A stretch of DNA of 63,698 nucleotides, filler included, from Asterionella formosa (GCA_002256025.1; 11 parts of 11 records of this genome joined end to end with filler, not necessarily neighbours in it), one strand, 5' to 3'. Numbered from the whole stretch's first letter, positions 10,092-47,139 are shown. Made by a program: numbers and translations. The notes: generated by a model not told the origin, from the sequence alone.

Positions 10092-11828
10092 ATGGTACGG
10101 GAACATGGTAGCTATAGAGCGCCATCGACGGCTTGTAGGACGATGGTGCGACTAAATCAGATGTCATGGTTCCTTCTAGTTGGGGTGATGGTGGGGCACA
10201 TGACGAGACACCCATCAGTCTCCGCCCACCCTGATCGGCGCCGTGAATGGAGTCCCAATGCACCAGAATCGTTTGCAACAACTCATGCTTCCGTCAAGGA
10301 GATTGCAAATGCCGTTGCACTTCTCCGATCTGTCGGATTGGACGACCTGTGCCACCCGAATTCGGACCAATTCACACCTTTTCTTCCTCAATGTCAATCG
10401 CCACTTGAAAATCGGCGTCTGAAGAAGAAAGCGTACAAAGACAAGAGCGATTGGTTCTTCATTGCCAACGGATTGTGTGCCTTTCTTTGTGTGCTCGTGG
10501 CTGCACTGGCTGCTGGCCTGACGATGGGCATGATGAGTTTGGATCCAATGACGCTGTTGATCAAAATGCGAGCTGCCTTGACCGAACAGGAGCAGCTGAA
10601 AGCGGCGTCGTTGCTGCCACTGGTCAAGCAACATCATAGGCTATTAGTTACCCTTTTGCTGTTGAATTCAATTGCCAACGAAGCTTTGCCCCTATTTTTG
10701 GATAGGTTGGTACCATCATGGGCTGCTGTGGTGTGCAGTGTTACGTTAGTACTGTTTTTTGGTGAGATTATTCCATCGGCAATCTTCACTGGACCGAACC
10801 AGATCAATATCTCGTCGCAGTTGGTGCCCGTGGTGAAACTCGTCATGCTGCTCTTGTCACCAGTGGCATACCCGATAGCTGCTTTGCTGGATTTATTTTT
10901 ACACGACGATGACAAAGGGTCATTTTACAACCGTGGTGAATTGACAGCCCTTGTTCGTATCCAATACGAAGAACGATTAGCCGCCAAGAAGCGTGATAGG
11001 GTGAATAAGCATTTGTTGTCAGATCAATTGGAACTGGAAGGACTGTTTGAGGCGGAACAGTTTGCGTGGAAGAAGCAAAACAAAATACAAATCGCTGCTA
11101 CAAATCGATCAGTGGAACCGACAACTGTTACTGTCGGTGAATCAATGGCGTTACTTAACATAGCACCTGAATCGGCGTACTCTAGCATTCGCACACTGGT
11201 TTCGGCTGGTTCCTCTATACAAGGAGATGAAGTCGCTATTCTTGAAGGAGCCTTACAGATGAAAACCAAGACCGCTATGAATATCTTGACTCCAATAAAT
11301 CATATGTTTGCAATTCCCTATGATATGGTGCTCAAAAAGGACAACATGGTTAAAATTTATAGGTCAGGGTACAGTCGAGTCCCCGTTTATGAAGAACGTC
11401 TAGGAAAGGAAAAGGATCAAACGGCCATTCGAGGTTTCCTCTTGACAAAGCACTTGATTGTTGTCAATAGTAAGCATAAAAGGATCGTCCATTCATTGCC
11501 ATTGCAAATTCCAGATTGTGTCTCCCCAAAGACAAACCTGGTTGATTTGATGCACCTCTTCCAAGGGGGCCGCACAGGATGCCGCGGTGGCCATATGGCA
11601 CTGGTTTGCACTAAACCCGAGCTGGCACATGACGCTCTTGAAGCAGGAAAGGCTATCCCTGATGACTGTGGGTTCATCGGTATTGTGACGTTGGAGGATG
11701 TCATTGAAGAGCTCCTGCAGGAGGAGATTTACGACGAAATGGATGGACACGAAAAAAAGGAGCTGCAATTGGCGCGATGGGTCTGGAGGAAGTGGAGAAA
11801 GTATGGAACGCGAAAAAAAGAGGGATAG
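10092..11828 (+). CDS. CNNM/DUF21 + CBS-pair metal (Mg2+) transport-related membrane protein (Mam3/CNNM-like)
   Basis: AGLTMGMMSLD, HRLLVTLLLLNSIANEALPLFLD, FGEIIPSA, GYSRVPVY and GIVTLEDVIEELLQEEIYDE. The true start may be a downstream Met such as MSWFLLVG. Confidence 0.93.
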   Translation: MVREHGSYRAPSTACRTMVRLNQMSWFLLVGVMVGHMTRHPSVSAHPDRRREWSPNAPESFATTHASVKEIANAVALLRSVGLDDLCHPNSDQFTPFLPQCQSPLENRRLKKKAYKDKSDWFFIANGLCAFLCVLVAALAAGLTMGMMSLDPMTLLIKMRAALTEQEQLKAASLLPLVKQHHRLLVTLLLLNSIANEALPLFLDRLVPSWAAVVCSVTLVLFFGEIIPSAIFTGPNQINISSQLVPVVKLVMLLLSPVAYPIAALLDLFLHDDDKGSFYNRGELTALVRIQYEERLAAKKRDRVNKHLLSDQLELEGLFEAEQFAWKKQNKIQIAATNRSVEPTTVTVGESMALLNIAPESAYSSIRTLVSAGSSIQGDEVAILEGALQMKTKTAMNILTPINHMFAIPYDMVLKKDNMVKIYRSGYSRVPVYEERLGKEKDQTAIRGFLLTKHLIVVNSKHKRIVHSLPLQIPDCVSPKTNLVDLMHLFQGGRTGCRGGHMALVCTKPELAHDALEAGKAIPDDCGFIGIVTLEDVIEELLQEEIYDEMDGHEKKELQLARWVWRKWRKYGTRKKEG

Positions 11829-12695
11829 AATTGCAATGGAAGAATTGCAACCCTTGAATGGCACAGTTTTTCACAGTAAGGTCAGTCATGGCGAAGAAAA
11901 TACGAGTCGCAATATGGCATTGTTTAGATCATCAGGCAACGACACTAGTTTTGGTTCATCACTTCTCTAGAACACAAAGAATATTATCTTTATAATGTGA
12001 ACCTATCTCTTCATGTCGAAATGAAGCCGCAGCAAACAACACCGAACAGTCCATCAGCATAACAAATGATACTGATCTCAATTGCTGTCCACAAATGGCA
12101 GATTGATCGCGCGAATGAGATAACCAAGAACATCAAAACATTTTGTTTCATTTACAAACACACATAAAGCAGGCGAGTAGTTCGTGTGTGGGTTTCCTGA
12201 CTTGTTTACAATTTTCTCTTTGTCAGCTTCGAATCTAGGGAAGCCTTATTTTCGAAGAGTATCAGCCTGCCATGTTGATTCTTTTTTCGTTATGAAGTGA
12301 AGGCACGCAACAATCATTAGGAACCCCCAGTGGAGTTGCAAGAGACAGAAATGCGTTGTTTTTGAACGGGATTGAGCGCATGTCCCAATGCTTGAGAAGC
12401 CTCGTGGAAGCACTTGAGGCGAAAAAAAACATTCGCATCACAGAAAATGAATGCGTGCGCTTCTTTGCTCAACTAAATAGGAACTACATCCATGACCTGG
12501 CCGTGAGCAGGCTAGTTGACAATGGTTTCCAAATAATCATGTATGATTCTCTTTGACGGCAGCAAATTTTGACAACAAACTTGACATGAAAACAATATAT
12601 TACTTCTGCAGATAACAATATCAACTGTCTCGTGCTTAATATTTCTTTTTCAATTTTCAATAGGGGTTCATTGATCGCATCATGTGTCATAGAGT

Positions 12696-15173
12696 TTACA
12701 GATTCGAGGGACTTGTCCGACTGAAGTCAAAGGGAACACCAGTACTTACCACTTTCAGGAAGGGGTATGTACGGCACATTCGAGAAATGATTTGTAGTTG
12801 CTGTCGCACGCTGACGGCTCCACGCTCACCTGCTAATTCCGCTAGGTCTTCTGCCACATTGCGAAGGATTTGAGCACCGAATCGTTGACGATCTTGCCAC
12901 AAGATCACCCGACATTCATGAATATGGAGCATGAGCATGCCCAAGTCATCAGCACTGAGTACTTGAGGTGCTTGGATTGTAGCGTTTCCATCCGCAAGTT
13001 TAGCTGTTCCCAATGGAGGAGGGACAGCAGGGGGGTCATCACGCATCACAAGTAGACGCTCGATATCTAAAATCACTTGACGGAATGATGCATACGTTTC
13101 TTCTCGACTCTTGCCCAACTTAAACAACACATAGACACAAAACCGGTAAACAGAACGAGCTCCGTAAGCAATGAGAAAAGCGGGTGTGACAGCAGCCAAG
13201 TTCATGTTGATTTCGTTACTTTTCAACATTTCATCCATGGCATACATTGCATTCATCATCTCCTTTTTTATAAATTGCATCTCAATAATGCTCATTCGTA
13301 CCACGCTGTTTATTTCGTAAAATGTTTTCATGTTCTCTTCCTTCTTCAATTCAATCAATGACATGTCCATTTTTTCGGCTCGATCTGCGCGCTCGGCTTT
13401 GTCCATATCAGGATAGCAGTCATCTAACCATGCCCGAATCATTTTCTTACAAGCTCCTATAGCCTCTGCTCGGGCTTTGTGATCACTTATGGACTCACGA
13501 CCATTTCGAGTAAACAATTCGGCAACGATAGATCGAAGCGGGACTGAAACATGCTCCTGATAGAAATCGAGAAACTTTTCTTTGATAAGTTTAGCCAGTT
13601 GAAACCCGTATCCATTCTTGAGCAGCTTATAAAATACATAAGCAGCAACTGGGGCACCCGTTGCAGTCATGTACCAATTTCGCCGAAAAGCTGACTTTGG
13701 CTTCAACTTTTCGAGTCGACGGCTCCGCTGTACATTCATAATTATTTCCATTGTGTTTAAAAGCTCGGATACTTCTAAAGCCATCAGAGGGAGGTCCGAT
13801 ATTGTCACTCGCTCAGGTTCCTCGAGATATTGTGACAAGTCATCTCCCTCTTCCTTAATTACGGACGGTCGTGATGCCCACTTGGGAAAATGATGGTCCG
13901 ATTTTTCAACACCGTTTGTAATCAGATCACCAGGACATGCATCTGTTGTCCAATTCTCCACTTGAGGTAAGGGTATTAGTCCGTTGGCCGCTCGATGGAG
14001 TTGATCGCGGACTATCCGCATTGCATCGATAGACCAAGCTGCTAATGCTGGATCATCCGTCATAATTTCTCCACCGTCAGCTTTTCTCACGAATACATGT
14101 GCATTTCCATAATACAATGAGGATTGATCCGTTTCTGCAACAGATTGGATGGATTCAGCTCGCATCAAACCAACATGAGGAGATGGAGGTGTTGGCCGAC
14201 ATAGTCGATCAATATCTGATGAGAGCCTCCTAGACCCAACGTGACCCCCTTTTGAAGTAACTGGTTCATCTCCCATAACTCCATCAAAGCCTGCTACAGC
14301 AGCCCATTGTCCACCTTGTCCTAATACCCCCCACTGAGCAACACCCTTTTGCCAAGCCGCCCGTAGCAAGTGTTCTTGCAACTCTCCAATCGCAGCACAC
14401 CTTCGTGCCAAGACGGCTTGAATCTGAGAGACTCGAAGCCCTACCAATTGATGATTGTATCCTGTGGGTGACAGCCACACTCCTGGACCTGCTTCCAACC
14501 AGCTCAACAACGGTCGCTCCCAGCGCGATGTCCAAAACTGTAATGCCTCGTGTAATTCAATAGCTTCGTCGAGTGCCAAATCACGGAGGGCTCGAATGGA
14601 ACCTTCCGCGAGCTGTGAGGCTGTTTCGGAAGAGGTAGACTTTGGGGTCTTGGGTTTTATGTTCGCATGCCATTCCATGGATTCTCCAAGCAGATCCGAG
14701 TTTTCCATGTTAACTTCTACATCATCTACAATGGGCTCTTCTTTGACGACTGGAACCAACGTCAGTAGCGACCGCACTGCATTCAGTGAGGAAGGGCACT
14801 GGTGTCTCCCTCGAACGCTGGAATATGGATTTTTGAGCATCCATTCAAGTTCAGGGTACTTGTGCACTGGTCGAATGTTCTTTCCGCTCGACAGTGGCAT
14901 CATGCTATTATGAAAGGATTCTTGTTTGGCAATGCTTTTGGATGACACCTCAAGATCGTCTGTGTATATAGATCGCACCATGCTGGCAAAGACAGCATTT
15001 GTCTGATCACTGGCATATTGCATCCCTGTTTGCATCGTCGTCGAAACGTACTGGACATATTCGTCAACGATGTAGGGTGATTTGGGGACATCCGCTTCCT
15101 TGGCTCCCCCTCCAGGACTGCTAAAGTAACCCTTCACTTTCAGAGGGACGTCCGAGATCTTTGTGGCGACCAT
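12696..15173 (-). CDS. NCA2 (nuclear control of ATPase 2) / DGS1-like mitochondrial protein
   Basis: 825-aa intronless ORF. C-terminal RRNWY-TM...MDEMLKSNEINMNLAAVTPAFL...GMLMLHIH resembles the NCA2/DGS1 family. Confidence 0.8.
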   Translation of the reverse strand: MVATKISDVPLKVKGYFSSPGGGAKEADVPKSPYIVDEYVQYVSTTMQTGMQYASDQTNAVFASMVRSIYTDDLEVSSKSIAKQESFHNSMMPLSSGKNIRPVHKYPELEWMLKNPYSSVRGRHQCPSSLNAVRSLLTLVPVVKEEPIVDDVEVNMENSDLLGESMEWHANIKPKTPKSTSSETASQLAEGSIRALRDLALDEAIELHEALQFWTSRWERPLLSWLEAGPGVWLSPTGYNHQLVGLRVSQIQAVLARRCAAIGELQEHLLRAAWQKGVAQWGVLGQGGQWAAVAGFDGVMGDEPVTSKGGHVGSRRLSSDIDRLCRPTPPSPHVGLMRAESIQSVAETDQSSLYYGNAHVFVRKADGGEIMTDDPALAAWSIDAMRIVRDQLHRAANGLIPLPQVENWTTDACPGDLITNGVEKSDHHFPKWASRPSVIKEEGDDLSQYLEEPERVTISDLPLMALEVSELLNTMEIIMNVQRSRRLEKLKPKSAFRRNWYMTATGAPVAAYVFYKLLKNGYGFQLAKLIKEKFLDFYQEHVSVPLRSIVAELFTRNGRESISDHKARAEAIGACKKMIRAWLDDCYPDMDKAERADRAEKMDMSLIELKKEENMKTFYEINSVVRMSIIEMQFIKKEMMNAMYAMDEMLKSNEINMNLAAVTPAFLIAYGARSVYRFCVYVLFKLGKSREETYASFRQVILDIERLLVMRDDPPAVPPPLGTAKLADGNATIQAPQVLSADDLGMLMLHIHECRVILWQDRQRFGAQILRNVAEDLAELAGERGAVSVRQQLQIISRMCRTYPFLKVVSTGVPFDFSRTSPSNL

Positions 15174-15868
15174 TTGTGACTGAGTGATGGCAAATAATTT
15201 GCTGCGGAACTGACAACTGTGGTGTCACTCAAAAATCAAAATTCCCACTCTGTCCTTAGCCTGTTGGCTAGCGATCCTCTACTGCCTTTTCTCGAAGCAA
15301 TGTTACAATTAATTTGACCTATCACAGTGCCAGTAGCAGATATGACGGATGCCCGCGAGGATGTCTTGAACGAAGAAGGAAGGAGAGGCCCAGCCGGGAC
15401 GAACCCAATCAGACGCTGTCAGTGACAATGATGACATTTCGGCAAAACTAAAATATTTGTACCAGCATGTAGTGGCAGGGTTGTGCCCCCCCCCCCTTCG
15501 TAAGGTTCCTGCATTTGAACCCCTAAATCGAGGTAGGGTTATAACAAATAATGAGTCAGACTAATCAAACAAATAGTTTGCACAAATTAAATGAAAACGA
15601 ATAACGCTCAACGGAGCTTCACCATTAGACACATTTCCATATGTACTGTAAAACCCGGTGTCTTGTACCCCCTTGTACATCTGGCACAACACTCCCAAAG
15701 ATTTTATGTGTACAGAAAAAATAACATAACCTAAACGTATTCTAGTTATTAATTTTTATTTTCGTATATTACTGTTCCCTGTTAAGTATCATCACATGCC
15801 GGGTTTATGAAAAATATTCTCACGTACAGGTATGCAGGTACCGGTAGGTGTATTAGTAATGCAGCAAC

Positions 15869-16264
15869 ATGAGAATTGTGGATGACATTCATGATGGCGA
15901 AATCCTCGGCATCAGAGGTACTACCAATGGAAGAAGCTGCAAGCAGCATGCCTGCTGTGGATCAATCGTGAGGCCTAATGATTGTGTTCGGTTCCAGGCA
16001 TCAGTGGTCCCAATTGATGGAGTTGCTGATCAGGCAGGTATCAAGGCTGTTCTGATCCTTGATGGGACGGAACTTTGCACCATTGGATTCCTTGACAAAA
16101 ATATTGCAGCTTTGAAAAAAACAAGCGACAAGTTTGTCAACAAGTTTGCTCAAGTCATTGAGCTCTATGATTCTAGTGAAAATGCTGCCAAAAGGGCAAA
16201 AAGCCATAATGACCTTGGAGTTTGTTCATTCTGGCTTCTTGAGGACATCCAGATTCAGGAATAG
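15869..16264 (+). CDS. Hypothetical 131-aa protein with N-terminal Cys/His cluster and HIRAN-like beta motif
   Basis: GIRGTTNGRSCKQHACCG...IKAVLILDGTELCTIGFL...FAQVIELY. Open frame with ATG and stop inside AT-rich, TE-like sequence. Confidence 0.6.
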   Translation: MRIVDDIHDGEILGIRGTTNGRSCKQHACCGSIVRPNDCVRFQASVVPIDGVADQAGIKAVLILDGTELCTIGFLDKNIAALKKTSDKFVNKFAQVIELYDSSENAAKRAKSHNDLGVCSFWLLEDIQIQE

Positions 16265-16509
16265 ATGTTATGAAAACTGGACAAGCCTTCAAGTCCTTCA
16301 ACCAATCTACATTACATCTAAGCCGCGTATTATGTGAAGTGACCATCACGTAAATAAGCCTAGTTGATTTTGAATGGATCACATGAATTAGTTGAATACA
16401 TCAAAATGCTTACTTGAATGTATCTATATATTATCTGAATACATCACGTTCATTTTTTGATCAGAGTATCATGCATGCATTCCTGATCATCACTACATTA
16501 CGTGATCAC

Positions 16510-16587
16510 CTTCACATAATTATTTGAAATACTTCACATAATTATTTGAAATACTTCAATTAATTATTTGAAATACTTCAATTAATT
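16510..16587. repeat. 22-bp AT-rich minisatellite, ~3.5 copies
   Basis: CTTCACATAATTATTTGAAATA repeated with small variations. Confidence 0.9.
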
Positions 16588-17185
16588 CTGTAATTCAGTT
16601 CACATTGCCTTAAATTTTTGTTCACGTAATTCTATAATATAGTTCACGTAATGTATTAAATTTTTTTACGTAATTTAAAAGTACTATCAAATAATGTTGA
16701 TTACTAATTCAACAACCGGTATTTCACATTACATGGGAAACAAATCTCGATATGCAATCAAACAAAGCTGTTCTATCAGAATGGAATCTTCAGTCTTGAG
16801 AAGGCAGGCATTATGAGACATCTGTAAGGACATCGCAAGACAAGGAGAAGCCATTCATTCAGAAGGGGGAAATTATTCACTCTTGAACAGGCATCATTCT
16901 ACGAAGTTGCAACATGAATGCATCCTCACACACTGATTTCCTTCTTGTCCTAGAAATGACTTCTTCATTGACCTGCAGAGATTTTCATAACAACAGTGTG
17001 TCAGTAATGTATATGATAGAACTAGCAACAGCAGAAAGCAACACACAGTTCATTCCAGACCTCATTGTCCCTGCCTGTTGTCAACAACAATGCGTGAGCT
17101 GACAAGCCATACTAGCATTTAGGTAAACAACAAGAACACACTCACCATTCAACTGTATTGCAGAGTTCTTTTATTTGAGTCGAGG

Positions 17186-17604
17186 ATTCAATTGACATTG
17201 CAGCAAATCCTTTCAATTCAGGAGCATTCGGATGAAATCCAGGATTGATTATTGTTGCTTTCTGATTCTGTGTTAATGTCATATGATAACAGGGCTCCGT
17301 AAATCATGAGTTGTTAGTGTGCCTTGGCGTGCTGTTTGTCATGCTGCCAGCTGCTGCTGTATTTCTACTGAATTATTGAACAACTCGCACATAAAGATTC
17401 GCATAGTCGTTCAATAATTCAGTAGAAATGCAGCATCAGCTGGCAGCATGACAAACAGCACGCCAAGGCACACTATCAACTCATGATTTACGGAGCCCTG
17501 TTATCATATGACATTAACACAGAATCAGAAAGCATCAATACTCCATCCTGGATTTCATCCGAATGCTCCTGCACTGAAAGGGTTTGCTGCAATGTCAATT
17601 GAAT
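17186..17604. repeat. Long inverted repeat: two 200-bp arms, 19-nt loop
   Basis: 17186-17385 against the reverse complement of 17405-17604 is ungapped with about 10 mismatches by eye (~95%). Confidence 0.95.
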
Positions 17605-17939
17605 GTAGAGGAAGATCAGTGTGAGTTTTCTCAATGTATATTGTTCCTGTTAGCTAGTCATGTTACATTGACACAACGACACACAATTCCACCGTATCCT
17701 CTTGCTTCACTTACCACAACGCAATGCAACTGATGCATAAGTCTGTAATAGTAACTTGTCAGTAAGCCAAATTCTTGAATAAGTAAGTTTCAGGTATCCA
17801 ATGTTGTCGAATAAAACTTACCGGTTCATTTTTGTCATCTTAACTTTGAGAGAAGGTACACGTTTTGTCAGTTTTGTTCCAACAGAAGTGAATAGGTCCA
17901 ACGAGCGACAAGAGCACTTACGCAATTTGGTTTTGTTTT

Positions 17940-18039
17940 NNNNNNNNNNNNNNNNNNNNNNNNNNNNNNNNNNNNNNNNNNNNTTAATTAATTAANNNNN
18001 NNNNNNNNNNNNNNNNNNNNNNNNNNNNNNNNNNNNNNN
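17940..18039. other. Artificial contig-joining spacer (first of 10)
   Basis: 44 N + TTAATTAATTAA (stops in all six frames) + 44 N. Identical spacers start at 35975, 53991, 55205, 56419, 57633, 58847, 60061, 61274 and 62487. Confidence 0.99.
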
Positions 18040-18223
18040 GGCGTTAACATGATCTGCTATGCTGGGATGTCTATCCTTGAGTCGAGAACAGGATGTGCCT
18101 TGCGGCCAGAATTACTACTGACACCAAGAATTATTGAACGTCTCGAGAACAAATGCAACGCGGCAACAAGCACAAAAAGCACGTCGTGCGATTACATAAC
18201 TAGTCGTGCCGGTATTACATCTC

Positions 18224-21200
18224 TGTGAAGAATATAGTATCGATGGCTACTGTAACCAGTCACAAGGACTGTGGACGCGACTGTAGTCAAATGAGTCAAA
18301 ATGGTCCATCCCCATGTCAAGAAGCTTGCTAACGAGATTGATGTTTTAGATCAATCAGAAGGGGGTTTGCATCAGCGAAAAGGGAACATGAAGAATGGGA
18401 AATTGTGATAAATGGGATTAATACTGGGACTTAGCTAGTTTAAGCTTATAGCTGGTGGTAGATAAATAAGAAACAGTGAGAATTGACAGGAGAGTAAGTC
18501 AATAGCGAAAACTATCACAAAGGCTAGCAGCAAAAGATAACAGTACTAGCAGTACAACTGGCAAAACCTAAGTTAGAGGATAGCCGTCTGACGGGAAGAA
18601 GTACATGACCTTTTAACATGCTTTAAAGCAAGAACGGTCAATGCTTTGAGCGAGGCTACATGCTACACCCTGCAGAAACGATGGGAAGTGACAAAGCTTC
18701 ATCTGGGAGTTCGCAAACATTCAATGGGCAAGATGCCAAATGTCACATGTAGAAAGCGAGGTTGGTATCATCCTTGTGCTACAAGAACTTTCAATGAATA
18801 CTCAATGGTGACAAACAATCAAGAGGAGGAGAGAAAGACCTAAACAAGGGGGGTGATAAAATCATGTCGAGCGAATGTCCCCAGAATATGAGCTGCTCCA
18901 AGCGGCAATGACCATTGTTGCGAAGCTTAATATCATTGCAGTTCCTCACCATGTCATATCTCATCAAGATAAGGAAGTCGATTTTCTATTACTACCCTTG
19001 GAGGCTAAACTTAATTGTGACATCGACCGCCTTGCAGGAACAGTGCGTGGTACACTCTTGTGCAAGCAACCCATTCACAGCTAGATGACTCCTCGACACT
19101 ACAACTTCCCCCAGGCCACTGGGCTAGCTACATTACCAATTGCTCACAATTGGATTACAAACCACTTACCCCTTGCTGTACATGAGGAGCGCCATCGAGA
19201 GACCGTTGAGCACTATATGCTTAAGCACACAATGGGATGGGAGACAATGGCGATCTATAACATGATGGATTGGTCAGCCTGACAGGCAGCATGCCGGAAA
19301 ACTTTTAGAAAAGGCTCCCAAAAGACGACGATTTTTAAACTCGAATTTGATCTCTTCACCACAATGAAACGTCGCCGTAAGTACAAACCGACCAACGACG
19401 GCCGGTGTCCTCACTCGCTGTGGCCGCTTCAACGAAGATTTTCCTCATGTCATCAGATGCCCACACAACCGCATCACCCGCCAAAATCTTGGACTGATCT
19501 AGTTGGCTTTCTCCATGGCCGTTATTCATGTCCCTTACTGATCACAGTTTTTTCTAAGCAAGGGGATGGAGCAATGACTTGCCGAGCAATAGATGACAAC
19601 TTGTTGGTTGGGGGACGTCCCCACTCAGGACAACAAGATTGGACAAGGCATGTACAAAGCCTTATAAACCAGCCACCAACAGCAGGATATTGGTTGGAAC
19701 CAATCCCTATGAGGCTGAGTTGGCAAATATTGGGGCATTGCAAACTCGAGCGAAGTACTGTTGGCAGTGCAGCATTCCTTCCGATTCTACTATAGAAGAC
19801 GATAAATGGACAATGAGTTTGGTGAATGAATTGTGGCTCTTTAGCATAGACCAATGGAAAGAACGCAATAATTTTATTTACGGGAAGACATCAGAAGACT
19901 AACAAATTGAATACCTTGGCAAGACCGCAGATGCCACAATTACAAAATATTGTAAGCATATGGATAGTTGGGTAAACCCTATGGATCGCCATCTCTTTCT
20001 CCTTCCCTGTTAAGTTCGCAAAACGAGGCAAAACTTAACCCAGAAGTCGTTATGGATCAGAACGGTTGAAAAATCTCTTCGCTCATGTGAGGACCACACA
20101 GCGAAAACACTTCTTGGAGACAGAGCTCAGCTCCGTCTCGCCCAAAAATGGGAAACTTTGGAAGGACAGCGTCCGAGAGTGCATTTTCGACACCCGTAAT
20201 CTGCTCTCACTCTTCCATTCTCGTGTCCCCTCGGGTGGCACAAGAAGAAGTGCGATTACTATTTAGTTTTAACGTACTATAAAACTTCATTTCCAATAAT
20301 CATGCATAGGATGCCAAGGAGAAGCGCGTCCGAAGGAACATTGCGGTTTTTGACTACTATGCAAGTTTGATAATGATGGCATGCCAGAGTGAGCGATTCA
20401 GACATGTCAATAATGCCAGAAGCGCCGAGTTTCCTATTGGCAATGCAAGCTAAAGAAGCATGCGACAAGCTCATTTCAACATATGAGTCAGGCAACATGG
20501 CGAACATTATTGCCTTGTCCAACCAATGGCCAACCAATGGACAAAGTGCACTCTTGGGGAAAATGAGAATCCCGACAGCTGGTGTGTGGAGTTGGATCGT
20601 ATCTGGCTGGCTGGGAGCGATTGGCTCATACTAGCTCCGCCGTTTCGGATGGTGCCCATGTGTCATACATCATCAATAACAACCTACCAGAAAGCTACAA
20701 GAGTTTGATAGTAGGAAGGTTCGGCCTGGCGCACAACCCACTAACGGTCGGCCGAGGAGATTAAGACAGACATTTGGGACTTCTACTATGATTTATGTGT
20801 CCGGAATGACCTCAAAGTGCCTAACAAGAACAAAAGCGAACTGGAATTCTACAAGAAGCAAAGGCAAGTTCAAAGGCGACTGCCGTAAGTGTTGTAAGTA
20901 TGGCCATAACGCAGCTGACTGGTCTGTTGCACCAAGGGCAATATTGCCGATAAGGAGGAGCTCACTCCAGAGCAGAAAGAAAAGGAAAACGATCAAGTGT
21001 TCCAAGTGCCAACACAAGGAACATCACGCAAGTGAGTGCACTAGTAACAGTGCATCTATACTATATAATAAAAACGAAGAGAACAACATAACTACATCTA
21101 CCCAGCAAGAAATGATCGAGGCCACCTCGCTTGTGATTGCAGAAATCACTGGTTGTTAGACAGCATTGCTATGATGTTCCACATCTGCACAGACGCACTC

Positions 21201-21800
21201 ATGATGGAGGAAAAACAAAAGTAAGTGAAACAGTCGTGGCAGGGAATGGAACTGAGATAGTCTCCTCGACTGCCTCTGGAACCATGACCCTGACAACTAG
21301 CTACTACAGACAAAGGAAAACGCTTGAAACTCACCGACATGCGGCTTTATGCACCGGAGTTCAAGAAGAACATCATCAGTGTCTCAAGAATGATCGACAA
21401 GGGCAATCAAGTGATCTTTGAGGACGATAGGATGATGATACGAAACAAGTGTAGTTTTTTGAACTGACAAAGGGACAAAACTCGAAAATTAGGGCAATCT
21501 ATCATGTCAAAGGCAAGCCGATCATCAAGAAAATGGTGATTGCCATACAAATGTGAACGTTGATCAACTACAAGAGAATACTACATAAAAATCGATTGAC
21601 GAATGCATCAAAAATGATTGGACAAAAGTTGTGGCAAAGACAACAAAGAAAGGAAAGAATCAATGGATTAAAAAAAGGTGAGCTTCGAAAGAAATATGTG
21701 ATGGTTGATATTAATGAAGCGCATACGAAGTATGTCCATTGCGATGATGAAAGGGAGAATACTAAACAATGGAAAAAGTTATGTGAGAATAGTGGTATGA
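18224..21800 (+). mobile_element. Decayed Ty1/copia (CoDi-like) retrotransposon: 5' LTR (~18224-18558), gag split by a LINE, zinc knuckles, pol 5' remnant
   Basis: LTR starts TGTGAAGAATATAG and is homologous to 57199-56860 (-). The gag N-terminus (TFNGQDAK...LCYKNF...ILNGD) resumes after 20304 (DAKEKRVRRN...AEFPIGNA...CDKLISTYE). Knuckle-like motifs CRKCCKYGH and CSKCQHKEHHASEC. Pol remnant VAGNG...LYAPEFKKNIISVS...INEAH. Confidence 0.8.
18867..20297 (+). mobile_element. 5'-truncated, decayed non-LTR retrotransposon (RNase H + C-terminal Zn-finger region, Ambal-like)
   Basis: RNase H end HVISHQD...LNCDIDRLA, a frameshifted CP..CGRFNED..HVIRCP knuckle, and LWLFSIDQWKERNNFIYG. Flanked by direct AATCATG (18860-18866 and 20298-20304). 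Confidence 0.8.
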
Positions 21801-22140
21801 TTGTATTTGGATAAAATATGATTTGATCATGAATGAAAATATCCAGTCATCGACAACCGGTAATTCTTCTACTCACAAGGTCTCATACATAGTGGGCTCT
21901 CCCTGTTGCCTGGAATGTGAGATGAGACATAGCAACTATGTCTGCACTCCCCACAAAATTACCCAATAAACCTCCAGTAGTTAAAAAAATAAAGAATCAT
22001 TAGTTCATCAAAAAAAACGCTGACCTCGAAAGCGCCCTTGTTGAAACAGAAGACCGGCTTGAGCAGCCAGTGCTGACTACAAAAGCAAGCTCAGGAGCCA
22101 AAGGAATGATAATACTGTGTTGCTAATGCACCAAAAAAGG

Positions 22141-22375
22141 GGGGAATGGCTTAGTGGTTAGCACACTCACTGTGGTGGCGGGTTCGACACCAGCATTCTC
22201 CACCTTTCTTTTTCATGTAGTCCCTAGGGTTCTGGGGAAAGCGGCTGACGAAAAGACTGGTCCCGTTGTGCCATACAGACGAATAAAACTGGTACTAATT
22301 CTGTCCATCTATTTGGTGGACCCGAGTGCAATTATTGGATAGCTTTAATGTACTATAAAATTTAATTGACATTTT
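22141..22375 (+). mobile_element. tRNA(Ala)-derived SINE with 17-bp TSD
   Basis: Head GGGGAAT...CATTCTCCA forms an acceptor-like stem. A box TGGCTTAGTGG (22147-22157), B box GGTTCGACACC (22181-22191). TSD TAATGCACCAAAAAAGG (22124-22140) and TAATACACCAAAAAAGG (22376-22392). Absent from the neighbouring repeat unit. Second copy at 26087. Confidence 0.85.
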
Positions 22376-22620
22376 TAATACACCAAAAAAGGTCGTCCGA
22401 AAAAGCAGAAATCGGGAAACTTTCATTGCCTGGCGCATTACAATAGTTCATCAAACAAACCGCTGACCTCGAAAGCAACCTTGTTGAAACAGAAAGCTGG
22501 CTTGAGCAGTGCTGACTACGAAAGCAAGCTCAGGAGCCAAAGGAAGGATAACACTGCGTTAATTCACGAAAAAAGGTCGTCCGAAAAAGAAGAAATTGGG
22601 AAACTTTCATCGCCCGGCGC

Positions 22621-22937
22621 ACCACTTACTTGCGCAGCCAAGCACCAAGCCCATGCCACAGTCCCCTTCAATGGCTTCTACTGCATACACCATTGCTGGA
22701 CCTATTTCCTGGTCACCATTATCACTGTCGCTCTGTGGGCCTCTACTACCGCCCTCATCAGAACATATTTAGGTTTTCTTCCCTCTGATGCTGTCAGTGC
22801 CCACTCTCCTCATGCGTGCGGCGCTATGGACCTACATTGCTTGCGCTCATGTCGATACCAACCGCATCTGCTTGATTGTCCCCTGCTGGCGCTCCAATGA
22901 AATGATGCGTTACTTACATCTAAAAGCCCAGCACCCC
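22621..22937 (+). pseudogene. C-terminal fragment of a DIRS/Ngaro-type tyrosine recombinase
   Basis: Across frameshifts it reads LGFLPSDAVSAHS..ACGAM...AHVDTNRICLI..WRSNEMMRYLHLKAQ, matching the HSLRxGGA...GRWxS...RYL catalytic region of YR retroelements. Confidence 0.65.
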
Positions 22938-24279
22938 ATCACGCAGTGCTGACTAGCTACGAAAGCAAGCTCAAGAGCCTAAGGAAGGATAACAGCGCGT
23001 TTATACAACAAGAAAGGTCATTAACCACAGCTGCCCACCCGGAAACCTAGTAGTCTACAGACTCTGTGTACGGCGGTGCAAAGGTGGTATCGGGAACCCC
23101 ACTAGTAAACCCACCATGACCACCATCACCCCCATCACACCATCACCCCCATCACCCAGCATTTAGTCCTACTAGGCAAAAGGGCTACAGCTGCTGAGAA
23201 CAGCAAGTCCCTCTGTCACATAGTAGCCAACGTCGATATGGACTCTAAAATAACACGCACCTGCAGATGACAACAACTGTGCAACATTAAAACATTGAAA
23301 AAAGCAGATTAAAAAATATAATCAATAAGATATGCTATACTTAAAAGTTATCAGCAATACAATGACATTACTCCATTTATTGATGTTCAATCGATTTTCA
23401 ATGGAACATCAATTATTTACAGGATAACAACCAGCTGTATATGATGATATGCAAGGGATCTTTTGGTTGTTAGGTGAATTCTTGAGGGAACCATCACAGA
23501 GTGTTTGCAAAAACTCACTACTATCAAGACACTTCTGCATGATAATGAGAATTATTTGTTGTTGTATCCTTGTATTCTTGTTGCATTGTTATTCGATGTT
23601 GTGTTCGTTGTTGCCTTAATAAGAGCCATCGAAAATTGATATAAATGGCAACTTTCGGTTGTGAGGTGAATTGTTGCGAGAATCATCACAGAATTCATAC
23701 AAACACTCCATACACTCAATATACTGTGGCATGATAATGTCATAATAACACTTAGCTACATTATGAAGGCTTCCTTGCTGAGCAAACACAGTGTAGTTGG
23801 ACAAACATTGAAGTCGTTGGTGTCGATTCTTCGCTGGATCACCGACAGTGTAGTATGCTACAAAGGTCAGTGGAACCATTCCCCGGTTGTCACATCAATT
23901 CTTGGTGGAATCATCGTCACACCAATGCGTTTACAAGGACAAATTACGATAAAATATGAGAATGCCCATAGCAATCACATCATTGAGACTTGAGGAACAA
24001 TACAATCATTCAAATAGTGGTCGTTGTTTGAGTCTTAAAGACAGAGCAAGAAGCGGAGCAAGTGATGATGATCACAAATAAACCAATATTTTCGCTGGTA
24101 CATCAACCTACGAGGAAACTGATCTATAGGAACAAAAATGAAATGTATATATATAATTGTACAATAAACATAGTCCAAAATGGTTTCTATTTAATTTATG
24201 ACAATTCTTGTTATACATATTTGATAGTATATTGAAATTAAACAATCATATGATCATCATCATAAGGTACATCACATGC

Positions 24280-24824
24280 AGGACATGTTGGGTCCCCAGT
24301 TGGTTTCTTAACTTTGTGAAGCTTTGTAAACTTTCGGCGAAGTGAACATCCTGTTTGTTCTTTGTCTGGGAAATTCTCGTTGTGTTGTGAAGCAACAACT
24401 TCCCTTTCATGAGACCCAATCGGCAGGTGAGTAGAATTAGAGTCCAGCAATACGAGGATCTCATTTATCCTGAACTGTTGACCCATGTTTTGGCAAACCC
24501 TTGAAAACGTTGGTGGTCACCTGGCAGTTGCCGTTCTTTCAAATGAACTAGTAGGGCGGGACAAATTGTTGTTGTTCCTTGATGGGGCGGGAATGAGTAA
24601 CCCCAGAAACAACAACAGGGACACCCATCCTGGTGTTGTCCTCAACATTACTGGCAAACTTGTCAGCATCAGTGCCATATTCATTTTACTCCTCCTTTTC
24701 TTCTTCTTCTGGTTGAATCTGTTGTTGTTCTTTTTGGTGACGGCGACGTTCAAGCAGCCTTGGAGAGAAAGAGAAGCCCTCCCTGGATGGCTGGTCTCCT
24801 TTGACCGGAAGAAAATGAAGACAT
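24280..24824 (-). pseudogene. Second decayed DUF6818-like gene copy
   Basis: GQQFRINEILVLLD..THLPIGSHEREVVA...SLRRKFTKLHKVKKPTGDPTCPA. The N-terminus and upstream DNA (to ~25200) are homologous to 4490-5400. Confidence 0.7.
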
Positions 24825-25134
24825 TGTCGAAATCTAAAAGCGATATGGATCCATATATTGAGGAGGTTGATCGATATGTAATGATATGCATACCTCTTTT
24901 GGCAGGAGCAAGCCATTGCTTTCCAGTATTAGCAAGCAAGTCTTGAAATATTCTGGGAAATTCTATGGAGTCATTCATGCCTATACATCTCCTTATATTT
25001 AATTTTATTTATTCAGTGCCTTATTGCTACAATATGATTGGTAGGGTAGCTAGCATAGAGCTTCCTGTAATACCAAGCTTTGGTTTTTGCGAGTAAGACT
25101 TACTTGTATAATGCACTGTTATTTATAACTGTAG

Positions 25135-25191
25135 AAATTTGTGTTTGTGTTGACCAATTTTGGTAAACCTGGTCAACACAAACACAAATTT
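25135..25191. repeat. Perfect 22-bp palindromic arms, 13-nt loop
   Basis: AAATTTGTGTTTGTGTTGACCA and TGGTCAACACAAACACAAATTT. Confidence 0.9.
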
Positions 25192-26086
25192 TTGGGTTAT
25201 GGGCACAACGATTTGTGTTATAATATACAAAATATAATAATTTCTTATTATCAAAGCTCGTCCAATAATACATCCATAAAATAATTAACATTTGTATACT
25301 GCATAAAATAATTTGTATATATCTTCTTACTCGGTGTTGTATTTTTTTCTTCATTTGGGGCCGTAGAATGACCAATATATTCATACACTTGAATATATAT
25401 CACTCTCCACTGATGATTGGAACCATCATCTGCCATTGTCACAATGATCATTTTATGCCTCTAAATTCTCCAGGAGAAGTACCTATTGTGTAATTTATTA
25501 CTGTTTTCTAGTCCACTTCGAACTATTACAATACCGGGTGCTGGTACTCCTACCAAGATGGAAGGCGTAGTATGTCCAACGAGTGAGAGGAAAAACCTTA
25601 TCTTGTTTGCATTGGCTTACGTTCAGTGAAAATATGGGAGCAGTGCCCTGATTAAGATTGACAAGGTAGTGCAAATGAACGGAAATATCAGTAATACTGA
25701 TGCTTTTATATGCGATGTACTAATTGTACCCATACTTTTTATCAGTACTTCGCATCCCACAGAATTCTGTATCCTGCACCTAGAATTCATGGATGTGCAC
25801 TGTCTTCCTCACAGAAGGTCTCCTGCACCCTTATATATATCTGACACTCTAAAATAATTTGTGATATCAAGATATGCAGTGACAGTATCAATATCGGAAG
25901 ATGAAATGACACCAAGCTCATGGCATTCTGGTCATATTGTTTGGATTTGAGGAGTCCTATGAAGGAAGTGGATTCTGCAAAGAACATGCACTCAATGAAA
26001 GGGAAAGGAGAAGGCTTCAACTCTCACCTTCCAAGCTCAACAAAATGAAATTGTAGAGAAGAACTTATCAATTAAATAATTATTTA

Positions 26087-26297
26087 GGGGGGATGCTTAG
26101 TTGGTTAGCATTCCTTCATAGGTGGCGGGTTCGATTGCTGCATTCTCCATCTGCCATTCTTTTTCATGTAGTCGTCCCCACTAGGGTTCCGGGGATCCGA
26201 CTAATGAATTATGAAGACAGGTTCCCATTGTACTGTATAGACAATTAAAACCGGTACTGATCCTCACGCACCAGTACATGAAGTCACCACATTTTTT
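26087..26297 (+). mobile_element. Second, more diverged copy of the tRNA(Ala)-derived SINE
   Basis: GGGGGGATGCTTAGTTGGTTAGCA...GGTGGCGGGTTCGATTGCTGCATTCTCCA...TTTTCATGTAGTC...CTAGGGTTC...TAAAACCGGTACT, collinear with 22141-22300. The 3' boundary is approximate. Confidence 0.75.
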
Positions 26298-26470
26298 ACA
26301 TTAGTTCATGAACAGAAGGAAGCGCTACGCGGTCTACCCTTCTAGCAAATGAGTACAAGTCTTAAAGCGCTTAAATGATAATCTGTTTTAAAGCCCCTAT
26401 TCATTCTCCCCTTTTTCAAGGCAAGTATTCATTGTGCTACCTGCCAACAAGACCTGTGCTTCCCTACTAG

Positions 26471-26736
26471 TTTTTTTAGCGTAGGTGAGTCCCCAACCAG
26501 TTTTCGCAAAAGGTGATTGTCATGTTAGGGGAAACTCCGACCGCCAAGGAAGGCGACACAAGCTGCTTGTAGGGGGCAAACCCACTATTTCTCGCACACC
26601 AGGCAAGACCGTGCGGGACGGTAAGGAGTGTGGGAGGCGAACCCAACAAATTGCTTTTCAAAAATATTGCCGGAATCGAACCACACAACTTCAGATCAAA
26701 GGGAATGTGCTCACCCATCTACTGTAAGCCGTTCCC
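26471..26736 (-). mobile_element. Putative second SINE family (tRNA-like head, A-tail)
   Basis: On the minus strand: starts GGGAACGG, degenerate A box, canonical B box GGTTCGATTCC (26682-26672), GC-richer body, ends in A7 (T run 26471-26477). Single copy in the window. Confidence 0.5.
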
Positions 26737-27711
26737 TTAGTGAAACAGCACTTAATATAAGTGAAGTTAAATTTTTTAAATTAATTATTTAGGTCAATAT
26801 ACCACTAATTCTATAGTAGACGGCACATTACAATCCAGTTTCATCCTCCTCTTCTTCTTCAGATAATGAGGTTTGGTCAGCATGAGAAGAGTCTTGAACA
26901 TGAGAAATGATTTAACTATTGATGCAAGGTGCTTCATTTCTGTTGCTGTACTGAAAATATTTCTAGAATACATGCACTTTCAAGTGGAACTCTGTCCCTC
27001 TTTACTTGCTGATGTCCTCCAGCATGTTGGTCACTTTGCAAGATGAAATCGACACACCACACTCCAAAATGATGTTAAGTCGAAAAAGCTTTGTTAAAGA
27101 ACTTGTATCTGTAATTGTAAAGCATATTTGAGTCCTTCAATTTGGGCTGTAACCTTCAAATGATTAACAAGGATACGCATTGTTTCCTGGAAGAAAAGGC
27201 TCTCAAAAAATTATGTGAGTAAATTATAGAAACATAAATGACAGCAACAACTGGATGAATAATATTGGATGGTGCGCACCATTAAGCAATACACAGCTTT
27301 GTTGATGCTGTTGGATTTTTCATAGTATTGGCCTAACAATGTCGTCGCTCGACTGGTTCAGTGGACGAAGAACCGGGTTTTGCCCATCACTTCATCGTTC
27401 CTGCCACAGTGTGGTCTGTGAGCGAAACTGACGATGTCGTCATTGCTGCTGATGCGCACTACATGGTACCTGGTACCTGGTACCTGGTAACATTCTGAGG
27501 AGATGAGAATTTATTCTCGGACGGAACAAAATTAGTAATAATTGATTGAAGTTCGGCGCGACGGCGCATGTCCGGAACAAGATTCTTCGCTTAGTATGCC
27601 TACCGGTACTCTGTATACCGATACAGCCAACTTTTCCGAGTGATTCTCACAATAAAAGGACACTAAAAACTTTCGGCACAACAGGGACAAAGGCTGGCGA
27701 AATCGACAGAA

Positions 27712-30700
27712 ATGAAGTCTTTTGCCTTTTACTTTCATCTAGCAATAGCTGCAATCTGTTGGCTCAGTGAATCAGCACTCGCATATTCATTCTCTTCGTT
27801 TCTTGGCCGGTCATTGGCATTGGAAGCATGTGCGCATCCCACCAGTACGAGACAACGCTTGTGCTCGCTGACGATGAGAAAGCAAAAGGCATCTGACAAA
27901 AGAACGTCTAGATTGCAGCGAGGTGCCGAGAGCGGGGTTGTTGATGCTTCTGATATCATTCGATCTCTACGAAATACGCTGACTACGTCTCCCATGGCGG
28001 ATGCAATGTGGGTAGAAAAGGAAATCACAAGTCAGTTGCCAGTGAAACAAACTGGTGGAAGAGGCAGATCCAGAAAGCGATCGTCCCTTTACCAGTGCTT
28101 ATCGTCTTATCATAATAACTTTCTCACTATGTTGTCGGCCGAATACAAGGCGGAGGTAAGCTATATGCTGACGTCAAAAATTATTCGACGTCGAAGATTC
28201 GGAGACTCGAAATAGAGATTCACTTTACTTTTGGCGCGCCACTCACACTTGCAACAATGCGTTATAGGAAGATGAGGTTTTAGGAAGGATCAAGGCTTCC
28301 ATTGAGGACCCAATAAGTCTGGAAAATGCGGGCTATGCCCTCTTTGACATGTTTCCAGAGCGACGTGGAAATTTGTTTGCTGATGAGGTGCGTTCCCGGG
28401 TATGGTGTGTTCCCGTCCCCACCAGAAGTAGTTCTCACTGTCGGCACTTCGTCAACCACGAATAGGTATATCGAATGGTGAAAGCCAAAGATGCAACAAC
28501 TACTTTCACTGATGATAATACAGACGACGCAACTATAAGTTTCCTTCCTCCCAGACACAAGTTTTCCGTCAACGATGTCATTCTTCTCACTTTGCAACCT
28601 ACCGGTAGCGGTGACTTCTTCGGGCCTGCAACTTTGCCGACCAATGAAGATGCTGTCTCAGCCGAAGCTCGTATTTTGAATACTGGACCTAGCTATGTCG
28701 ATATAGCCCTTCCAGGAGGTGCATTCGAAAAGGCATTTGGTCCTGCCCCAAACAACGTCGGGCCTTCGGGTAAGGGAAGTCCCCGCATGCGCATACGTGT
28801 GGATCGATTCTTTTCCAGAGTTCCTTATCAAAGAATGGTGACTGCCCTGGGGCAGCTCACGTCCCTCCCAGATCGGGTCAAAAAACCTGATGCTGACGGT
28901 ATTAGGCCCGTCACTAGCGAAACATCCAACCCATATGACTCTATTTGTATGGACGAACTGCTTCGAGAGACGATCCTCTCCACCTATGCTTTCAATGATC
29001 CCACAAGTCAATTATGTCGTGACACTGACGCATGCGATCTTCAGGAGCTGGCAAGACGTCTCGCTCGACCACCGTTACCCAACTCATCCAGGTTGGCTAA
29101 TCAAGCGCTGGTCTATATGCAGTCCAATCCACATGGGGTATTCGGTAAATTCAATGGACCACAACTTACAGCTATTGGAGCTGCTCTTACTCGCAGACTG
29201 ACTCTTGTACAAGGTCCACCAGGTAATTGTCTTACGTTTCTCTTCTCGTACTTCTCTGGTTGCTTTATTTATGAACTCGAACTCTAACTGATCATATTTC
29301 ATCGTTTCAAGGGACTGGCAAGACAACAGTTGGGGCTGCAATTGGATTTGGATTTGTCCATCAGTGCAGAAGCATTTCACCAAATACTAAGGTTCTTGCG
29401 TGTGCTTTTAGTAATGTCGGTGCTGATAATATGGCGGAAAGCTTAATCAAACTTGGCCTAAAGGTCGTTCGTGTTGGTAAGGCATCGGCTGTTTCTCAGT
29501 CGTTGTGGGACATCACACTTGACGCCGCAATTGACAGAGATCCCATAGCCCAAAAAGCGCAGGCAAATGCAGCATACATAACTGGGCAGTTGTCGAAGGC
29601 GTCTCGGGGAAATAAGGGAGCTAGCAAGAACAAGAGTATATCGTTGAGTGAACACACCATCCGCGAAGCAGCAACCGCTGCTGTCAAAGCGTCCATCAAG
29701 GCCTGTAATATTGCGGCAACAAAAGCTCTCCGCGAAGCAGATGTAATTGTGTCTACGTCGACGGGAGCCTCTGATCCTCGTTTGTTGGCTGCATGTGGTT
29801 TAGTTTTAAACGATGAAGCTTTGGAAGAAGATGGACGATTGAATAATCCGACTGCGAAGAAGACGATTCTTTCGAGCTCAAAGCCAGGCGAGAAAGCAAA
29901 AAAAATACGCATCAATGCTCCCGATAATTTGCCTCCTCTTTCTCTTCCATTCGTTATTATCGACGAAGCATGTCAAAGTGTCGAACCGGCCAGCATTGTG
30001 CCGGTAACTTCATCCGACAGCTGCCGATCGCTAGTCCTCCTTGGAGACCCTTGTCAGTTGCCACCAACAGTTCGCAGCTCACCTACATCATCTCTGACTG
30101 TCTCGCTCATGGAGAGAATGGCTGCAATTTTGCCGCAACCTGTGATTGTCACCGCTCAGAATGATCACACTGATAAAGATGAGTCGTTTTTGACAGGAAA
30201 ACCGACAAAGCAAGCTACGTCTTTATTACGAGTACTTTATACAGATCAGCCCAAGGTCTCTTATCGCAAGAAATTTGCTGGATCTCTTTTACTCTCAGTT
30301 CAATACCGAATGCATCCATCCATTGCTGCTTTTTCGTCCGCAATCTTTTATGACGGCCTACTCTCTACCCCTAGCTTCCTTGGAGAAACCCGCCCTTTCC
30401 CTGAAGTTTTGCGAAGGCAGTTGCCTTCCGAAACGCCTGACATTGGAGTACGTTTTGTAAACGTCGGTGGACGAACGAACGAGCGCCGAGGTTCTCGCAA
30501 TAATTTCGTTCGGACAGCGTATGGGTCATCACCTTCAGTCCCTTCGGAGCAGCAAACCTCTTTCTGTAACGAAGAAGAAGCCCGCCGTATTATTTCTCTC
30601 GTAACAATAATGTTAAATGAGAACGGGGGCCACAATATGGACTCCTCAAGTATTGGTATTGTGACACCATACACGGGCCAAGTTGAACTCATCAAATCCA

Positions 30701-31014
30701 TTATGTCAACAGATGTTGACTTTAAGAAGGCCGCGAATTCGCTTTTGATTCCAATTGAAGTGAAGTCTGTTGATGGATACCAGGGGCGAGAACGAGACAT
30801 CATCATATTTTCTTGTGTTCGTTCGAATCGCAGTGGCAGTATAGGTTTCCTCACTGACTGGCGTCGTATGAATGTTGCATTGACCAGAGCAAAATCAGCT
30901 TTGGTCGTTTTCGGAGATGTAGAAACATTGGTAGAGGGCGACAAACACTGGGCGGCTTTCGCCAAGTGGTGCAAGGGAAACAATTGTATCATAGACAATT
31001 TTCACTCCAAGTGA
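27712..31014 (+). CDS. SF1 helicase, UPF1/DNA2/NAM7-like (AAA_11/AAA_12), 4 exons, probable plastid presequence
   Basis: Exons 27712-28155, 28268-28387, 28466-29222 and 29312-31014 with GT-AG introns. Walker A QGPPG|TGKT is split by intron 3. Also IIDEACQ, LGDPCQLPP, QYRMHP, SVDGYQGRE and RRMNVALTRAK. Confidence 0.92.
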
Positions 31015-31189
31015 CCATGCAACGACGTCACCGAGAAATTAAAGTACATTTGAACAATTTTCAAACGAGTGATGTGCTCCAGTTCCACACGTGCGCTCAA
31101 TGGAAGCTTAGAATTGCTCGCTCTGTTGTTGCCATAGCAGAGCCTTTATTTGAACACTTTCACTACCGAAGGAGTGATAACAGGTATTA

Positions 31190-33440: not shown

Positions 33441-33461
33441 AGAATTGAAAGAATAAAATTA

Positions 33462-47129: not shown

Positions 47130-47139
47130 ATCTAGCCGG

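Follow-up and report, generated by a model that had tools for sequence, protein, structure and literature searches.

A tRNA-related SINE and a divergent LINE remnant with a common 3' tail in the diatom Asterionella formosa: a candidate partner pair

The locus

The stretch of DNA considered here, 63,698 nucleotides (nt) from the diatom Asterionella formosa (GCA_002256025.1), is called the window, at its full length, throughout this text. Our subject is a short interspersed nuclear element (SINE) at 22141-22375 and the remnant of a long interspersed nuclear element (LINE) that lies 1.85 kb upstream of it in the same orientation, at 18860-20199. Near its 3' end the SINE carries 43 nt that resemble a stretch found just behind the stop codon of the LINE remnant. 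An earlier reading, made from the sequence alone (the sequence-only reading in what follows), had proposed on this basis that the two elements form a partner system, i.e. that the SINE is copied by the machinery of the LINE whose 3' end it has borrowed.

The window is an artificial join. Its pieces are 1-17939, 18040-35974 and 36075-53990, followed by eight of about 1.1 kb; the joins lie at 17940-18039, 35975-36074 and 53991-54090 and then at each 1214 bp up to 62586. In each of the ten joins 44 N stand on either side of TTAATTAATTAA, a spacer with stops in six frames, and these spacers mean that the window was put together from separate pieces, so that features of two different pieces may not be adjacent in the genome. 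The SINE, the LINE remnants designated A to C and the repeats that flank them are all on the single piece 18040-35974. Contigs from four DNA sequencing runs (X1-X4), which belong to four studies, were compared with the region 18050-26500 at a likeness of at least 80%. The sequencing runs that contain the stretch are labelled as algae, freshwater, lake or riverine metagenomes, which fits a freshwater diatom as the host.

The SINE and its family

SINE copy 1 (22141-22375, plus strand) is 235 bp long and is a full-length copy as judged by the boundaries of its family. It is enclosed by a target site duplication (TSD) of 17 bp, with the 5' copy TAATGCACCAAAAAAGG at 22124-22140 and the 3' copy TAATACACCAAAAAAGG at 22376-22392, both on the plus strand and identical in 16 of 17 positions; this is the only copy of the element for which a duplication is demonstrated. 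Base 22376 (T) can be assigned to either the element or the duplication. The uninterrupted target site, TAATTCACGAAAAAAGG, is found at 22560-22576 (plus strand) in a paralogous tandem unit, and when the two tandem units are aligned a single gap of 252 columns remains, which is the 235 bp of the element plus the 17 bp of the duplication. Both the TSD and the empty site in the neighbouring repeat unit had been claimed in the sequence-only reading, and both were confirmed. The element is non-coding and ends without poly(A). No terminal inverted repeats were found in copy 1, and the possibility of a miniature inverted-repeat transposable element was rejected on account of their absence and of the TSD length of 17 bp.

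The empty site is supplied by a local tandem duplication with a unit of about 200 bp, the parts of which (21998-22140 with 22375-22437, then 22441-22621, and 22943-23019) are 85-90% identical. Contigs in three of the runs connect 21830/21867 to 23199/23224, which means that the surrounding repeat has other copies that lack the whole tandem block.

The contigs also reveal how widely the element itself is distributed. In run X1, unrelated sequence stands ahead of 22141 in 30 contigs (agreement 0.41) and behind 22376 in 52 contigs (agreement 0.40), and these breakpoints coincide with the ends defined by the TSD. Since so many contigs with unrelated flanks break at the same two positions, 22141-22375 is a genuine multi-copy SINE family with fixed ends. 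The flanks of the other copies, as seen in the contigs, are A/T-rich. For the two bins that contain copy 1, contig depths in X1 add up to 163,505 and 260,143, compared with depths of 341-493 for the zero-difference contigs listed; the summed depth is not equivalent to a copy number, and the two bins also include the flanking tandem unit. The depth pattern over the SINE is the same in runs X2-X4.

A second copy, which the sequence-only reading had placed at 26087, was detected by blastn at 26087-26264 (plus strand). The head and the body are present and about 71% identical to those of copy 1, but the tail is missing and another high-depth repeat follows. One X1 contig leaves a copy-2-like body at 26251 and enters the tail at 22324, and the 31 letters between the two resemble positions 22303-22324 of copy 1. 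A copy-2-like body that does carry a tail indicates that the family is normally tailed and that copy 2 of the window is truncated at its 3' end. The repeat that begins right behind the truncated copy, at 26228-26500, is of high depth, and many contigs end within it at 26428, 26466 and 26499; these contigs agree with each other (0.7-0.8), so they represent one repeat family that runs on and not random flanks.

A further copy was met outside the window. Scanning for the tail motif returned one locus in a Joint Genome Institute metagenome contig (L001), which contains 98 nt from the 3' end of a further SINE copy. Its 3' flank differs from that of copy 1, and its terminal letters, ...TTGACATTT, are those of copy 1. 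The same motif gave 0 loci in genome_contigs, and scans with motifs of the SINE body gave 0 loci in genome_contigs and 0 in viral_contigs. A shorter tail motif of 17 nt was found at 16 loci in viral_contigs, none of which is similar past the motif (33-48 of 94 positions, vs 81 for L001).

The first part of the element (22141-22203, plus strand) resembles a tRNA. It has an acceptor-like stem of 7 bp, GGGGAAT...ATTCTCC, with a G3:U70 pair, and the motifs TGGCTTAGTGG and GGTTCGACACC of copy 1 fit the consensus sequences of the A box (TRGCNNAGTGG) and the B box (GGTTCGANNCC) of internal polymerase III (Pol III) promoters, although the function of these motifs as a promoter is putative. In copy 2 the fit of the box motifs is poorer. 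The anticodon arm is shortened, only 5 nt being placed where the Rfam tRNA model has 13, and the model scores 17.7 bits on 22140-22202, below its gathering score of 29. The corresponding E value is 8.4 over the 4227 families to which Rfam E values refer here, or about 0.002 for the tRNA family alone, a figure that we obtained by division. The head of copy 2 was not reported by the Rfam tRNA model at E<=10. In other words, the stem and the boxes described in the sequence-only reading are there, but they belong to a degenerate head. The label tRNA-Ala is uncertain, as it derives only from the G3:U70-type acceptor stem of a head with a shortened anticodon arm. A T5 run that resembles the Pol III terminator of tRNA genes follows 5 nt past the head (22209-22213, plus strand) and is also present in copy 2, at 26160; its position suggests that the head may have been derived from a tRNA gene along with the terminator. 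A match of the Rfam U4atac model over the body of the SINE (19.4 bits vs 53) was treated as chance.

One could doubt that the element is a SINE and take it for a pseudogene of a tRNA or for a piece of sequence duplicated locally. The weak tRNA score would agree with this, and so would the T5 run, which follows the head directly in the manner of a tRNA gene. On the other side stand the unrelated flanks that dozens of contigs show at both ends, the TSD, the empty site and the copy in the metagenome. A head confined to one or two copies without TSDs, as a pseudogene would have it, is contradicted by these data, and we regard this explanation as effectively excluded and the least probable of those weighed here.

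The LINE and its relatives

LINE remnant A (18860-20199, plus strand) is truncated at its 5' end and frameshifted. It was recognised with phmmer and with tblastn searches of the related proteins P0002, P0012, P0015 and P0035; among the open reading frames (ORFs) of the window Pfam detected no reverse transcriptase (RT), endonuclease or RNase H family, and the LINE would not have been seen by that route. The proteins P0002, P0012 and P0015 align from 18860/18875 to 20190 in three frames, through their own C-termini, with the natural stop, TAA, just behind at 20197-20199. What is left of the protein is the C-terminal half of an RNase H domain, a zinc knuckle of the form CPxC...H...C and a C-terminal domain. 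The remnant thus begins in the middle of RNase H, as is expected of a 5'-truncated LINE copy. An exhaustive phmmer search with the 74-aa ORF at 18860-19084 returned 34 proteins, and a search for longer proteins homologous to the 170-aa ORF at 19283-19795 found none.

The domain content of the intact element can be read from the relatives. In P0035 (1736 aa) the module of remnant A stands behind sequence with endonuclease-like and RT-like motifs, and the first 1060 residues of this protein led to 54 further proteins of about 950-3000 aa. Among 21 aligned family members, RVT_1 was matched in 10 (best 3.2e-7), Exo_endo_phos in 8 (best 4.7e-10), Exo_endo_phos_2 in 3, RNase_H in 4 and zf-RVT in 2. 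The knuckle of P0002 matches zf-RVT with an E of 0.031. A profile of the family finds E. coli RNase HI at 7.6e-6, across the entire domain. P0035 alone matched no Pfam model and no PDB sequence, which marks the lineage as divergent. The neighbours of its RT-like part in the Atlas carry RVT_1, and the nearest cluster consists mostly of Bacillariophyta; those relatives of the LINE protein that have a named source belong to Fragilaria crotonensis and Fragilariopsis cylindrus. An apurinic/apyrimidinic (AP) endonuclease domain occurs in members of the family and is absent from the truncated copies of the window. Judged by these protein relatives, the family of remnant A is a diatom LINE with an AP-type endonuclease, a reverse transcriptase, an RNase H and a zinc knuckle, which supports the sequence-only reading in its view of the neighbour of the SINE as an RNase H LINE, a member of the non-LTR (non-long-terminal-repeat) retrotransposons.

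Two more remnants lie on the same piece. Remnant B (30947-33480, minus strand) belongs to the family of A, with an RT part at 33480-32488, followed by RNase H from 32071 to about 31190; its 3' end is missing. Its identity with the RT-like part of P0035 is 46-48% between 33480 and 32587. Remnant C (33622-34880, plus strand), detected by tblastn, is a more distant member and runs towards the end of the piece. Scans with the LINE-protein alignment gave 29 pattern matches in metagenome_contigs and 33 in viral_contigs, none of which was confirmed.

The 3' untranslated region (UTR) of remnant A, at 20200-20300 on the plus strand, was delimited by blastn, tblastn and contig depth. The tail-like 43 nt (20249-20291) begin 49 nt past the stop, on the coding strand, in the place where one would look for the 3' UTR of a LINE. 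Summed X1 depths are 417-1332, or about 1-3 contig-equivalents, for the bins from 18896 to 20305; the last of them, 20024-20305, has 417, and the next, 20306-20587, has 106,473. The end of the LINE remnant and the tail-like stretch therefore share the final bin of low depth, and a repeat of high depth begins directly after it, near 20306. Record 4 of X1 covers 19922-20534 with 0 differences and record 24 of X4 covers 19898-20505 with 3. As contigs of two studies run from the end of the ORF through the tail into the next repeat, the locus is not an assembly join. The sequence-only reading had regarded 20249-20291 as the extreme 3' end of the LINE: the stretch does lie in the 3' UTR, but neither a TSD nor a second copy sets the terminus.

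Remnant A has other repeats as neighbours at both of its ends, since the region 18050-18613 also has very high contig depth. Just upstream of the remnant, 18567-18462 is an inverted copy of 6407-6514 (81% identical). Directly after it, at 20377-21450 (plus strand), we noticed by eye a decayed Copia-type gag-like frame with an AKEA.DKL...YE motif and a CCHC knuckle; contigs of all four runs cover this repeat at very high depth, and Pfam gave no match for 20680-21159 or 21137-21418. The LINE may have inserted into the Copia-type repeat, or the reverse.

The shared tail

The 43-nt module of SINE copy 1 (22325-22367, plus strand) aligns with 20249-20291 on the same strand and without gaps at 34 of 43 positions, exactly as stated in the sequence-only reading (blastn, 38.3 bits, E 1e-5 against the window). 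To assess the significance of the match, the element's final 77 nt were shuffled with their dinucleotides preserved, and each shuffle was searched across the whole window by blastn; of 1000 shuffles none attained 38.3 bits anywhere, and the best reached 36.5. The common motif can be written AGTGCR...GTACTATAAAA. The tail of L001 is closer still to the LINE, with 36 of 43 positions identical: two of the nine differences between copy 1 and the LINE are private to copy 1, and at these L001 has the letter of the LINE. Thus, the similarity does not vanish when a second SINE copy is considered but rises.

Could two A/T-rich stretches resemble each other to this degree by chance? The region is indeed A/T-rich, and for an all-against-all comparison of the 64-kb window we calculate an E of about 0.02 at 38.3 bits. 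The shuffles, which never attain the score, the better likeness in the independent copy L001, and a position and strand that suit a 3' UTR all speak against coincidence, and this possibility can in effect be set aside as very improbable.

A different matter is the direction of the relationship. The 43 nt at 20249-20291 might be a stray remnant of a SINE tail, left by a severely 5'-truncated or mostly deleted copy that came to lie past the LINE stop, in which case the tail of the SINE would have some other origin. With many SINE copies fragments must exist, and one X1 contig connects the Copia-type-like position 20705 straight to 22325, the first base of the tail (the shorter side being 26 nt), so that the tail can occur without the body; moreover, the LINE terminus is undefined and the motif was not seen with remnants B and C. 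Such a fragment would, however, have had to land within 150 nt of the only stop of such a LINE in the window and in the right orientation, for which we estimate a probability of about 0.001, i.e. 150/(2 x 63698). In addition, a 5'-truncated SINE should retain the SINE 3' terminus, whereas the match halts 8-9 nt short of it, and 20249-20291, which is 79-84% identical to the SINE tails, shares the low-depth bin 20024-20305 with the end of the LINE remnant. We consider a stray tail quite unlikely; the comparison of the sequences indicates that the tail of the SINE is probably LINE-derived.

Taken as a whole, it seems to us reasonably likely that the element is a SINE of a freshwater diatom whose 43-nt 3' module descends from the 3' UTR of this LINE family, with classical "stringent" copying as the most likely route. 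Several observations weigh against this reading. On the side of the tail, the likeness is not continued ahead of the 43 nt: for the sequence upstream of them, the observed score was equalled by 674 of 2000 shuffles, and an extension to 20162-20293 proposed by nhmmer was rejected because its additional part was no better than the shuffles or than other stretches of the window (39/84). Nor can the last 8-9 nt of the SINE (GACATTTT) be aligned to the sequence after 20291. Copy 2 of the window has no tail. The predicted hairpins of the SINE and LINE tails are no more stable than those of shuffled sequences (z -0.20 and -1.21).

On the side of the LINE, the comparison is with a single 3' end, that of a decayed copy which is both frameshifted and 5'-truncated. 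Its terminus lies between 20291 and about 20340 and is not defined more closely, and a search for a TSD of the LINE found none, the flanks of remnant A sharing only two exact 8-mers. Remnant A is about single-copy at a likeness of at least 80%, and in the four runs no family of close LINE relatives with this tail was seen at that likeness. Remnants B, which has lost its 3' end, and C, which runs towards the end of the piece, give no second LINE 3' end for comparison. A search with a tail profile for diverged tails near B and C gave nothing below E 0.1. On the side of the head, ARAGORN called zero tRNAs in the entire window, and the Rfam score of the head is below threshold. Finally, the T5 run behind the head in both window copies would be expected to halt Pol III ahead of the body and the tail.

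The folding of the tail points both ways. The tails of the SINE and of the LINE can both form a stem, AGUGC(A/G)...(U/C)GUACU, in which an A-U pair of one corresponds to a G-C pair of the other, i.e. one compensatory change, but as said their stability is like that of shuffles. Coming from two sequence types with such energies, the predicted common stem is a hint of a conserved structure.

The tail could also be LINE-derived while remnant A represents a dead sister lineage, so that the SINE was mobilised by another, unsampled LINE subfamily or is no longer mobile. The identity of only 34-36 of 43 positions between SINE and LINE, the decayed and about single-copy state of remnant A, and the presence of at least three diverged LINE lineages on one 18-kb piece would all agree with this. 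Nothing in the data contradicts it; it is compatible with descent of the tail from this LINE family and differs from the reading that we favour only in the identity of the partner. We rate it as unlikely, though not negligibly so.

Proposed mechanism

If the tail does descend from this LINE family, the following course of events can be envisaged. The A and B boxes in the tRNA-like head would serve as the internal promoter for the RNA of the SINE, which presupposes that Pol III can transcribe the whole SINE. The LINE-like 3' tail, possibly folded into a small hairpin, would then be presented to the LINE protein, and we infer that this protein would recognise it. The protein would nick an A/T-rich target and copy the SINE in trans through target-primed reverse transcription; the new insertion would lack poly(A) and be flanked by a TSD of about 17 bp. 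Copying of this kind fits the element, because copy 1 has a 17-bp TSD at an A-rich site and lacks poly(A). The source of the protein would presumably be the LINE family, and not necessarily the decayed remnant A.

Comparison with known systems

It is instructive to compare these features with the stringent SINE-LINE pairs, such as UnaSINE1/UnaL2 of eel and SmaI/RSg-1 of salmonids. Like them, the diatom SINE combines a tRNA-like head, in which motifs similar to the A and B boxes occur, with a body of its own and a 3' module that shows homology to the 3' UTR of a LINE; it has no poly(A), its TSD is of LINE-like length (17 bp), and it is present in many copies with fixed ends. There are also differences. 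The host is a diatom, the anticodon arm of the head is shortened and a T5 run stands behind the head. The shared part amounts to 43 nt and stops 8-9 nt before the end of the SINE, and the candidate partner is known from a single decayed copy.

The LINE, in turn, is similar to the AP-endonuclease (APE)-type RNase H non-LTR elements (the I, Tad1 and R1-like groups and the Repbase clade "Ambal"). The order endonuclease, RT, RNase H, zinc knuckle is the same, the family profile matches RNase HI and the copies in the window are 5'-truncated. Unlike these elements, the diatom LINE is very divergent (RVT_1 in 10 of 21 members, no Pfam match for P0035) and has about 330 aa, comprising the zinc knuckle and the C-terminal domain, after RNase H; the label Ambal-like, given in the sequence-only reading, is putative.

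Published sources provide the background to these comparisons. SINE 3' tails are described as usually derived from the 3' end of the partner LINE (PMC7245038, PMC5786205). For Pleurosigma pacificum, LINE/Ambal and SINE are given as repeat classes from an automated pipeline (PMC12803021), and in Thalassiosira pseudonana an RTE-like non-LTR family is reported (PMC2806351). In Phaeodactylum tricornutum, automated annotation listed a "Putative SINE" with 13 copies and 1,454 bp, which was called the first in a diatom (PMC5859163). This is a SINE class in a diatom as well; compared by description only, it comes with no LINE in the genome table and, in the accessible part of the paper, with no description of a head, a tail or a partner. 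In the main text of a 2025 preprint on diatom transposable elements, the terms "SINE", "non-LTR" and "Ambal" are absent. Our literature search, the scope of which did not extend to subscription papers, Repbase Reports and supplements, found no characterised SINE-LINE pair in diatoms, only automatic SINE classes. The system described here is possibly, and we say so tentatively, the first diatom SINE-LINE partner system at the sequence level, in which a SINE of high copy number, derived from tRNA(Ala), would have taken its small 3' hairpin from a LINE lineage of the endonuclease-RT-RNase H-zinc-knuckle type that is very divergent and widespread in diatoms.

If this is true, LINEs of this kind recognise their own 3' end, i.e. 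they are of the stringent type, and in a freshwater diatom they still are active or were so until recently. The literature on diatom genomes mentions SINEs and LINEs almost only as classes produced by automatic pipelines, and a curated SINE family with a head, defined ends, a TSD and a candidate LINE partner would improve the annotation of diatom repeats. The family would also give insertion-polymorphism markers for populations of freshwater diatoms, and it points to a divergent LINE lineage in which the recognition of the 3' end can be tested. The general picture of SINE function is unchanged, and a pair of this type is not surprising in principle.

Other features of the window

Two ORFs, at 5064-5414 (plus strand) and 24241-24516 (minus strand), match the Pfam family DUF6818 with E values of 1.8e-7 and 6.9e-7, respectively. 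They lie within a repeat that is common to 5162-5368 and 24484-24278 (74% identical), and the region 24254-25381 has very high contig depth. A near-perfect inverted repeat of 23 bp with an 11-nt loop is located at 25135-25191 (minus strand), likewise within a repeat of high depth, and probably belongs to a foldback element or to the end of a transposon; the Rfam MIR4221 match at this place (21.6 bits vs 100) was treated as chance, as was a match to CrcZ.

Host genes appear as long ORFs in 10038-11825, 12696-15224, 29275-31011 and 41187-50688. They include a CNNM-domain protein, NCA2, a superfamily 1 (SF1) helicase (AAA_11/AAA_12), sedlin, an RNA methyltransferase (Methyltransf_10), a Surp/PRP21 splicing factor and a methionyl-tRNA synthetase, the last in three exon-like ORFs.

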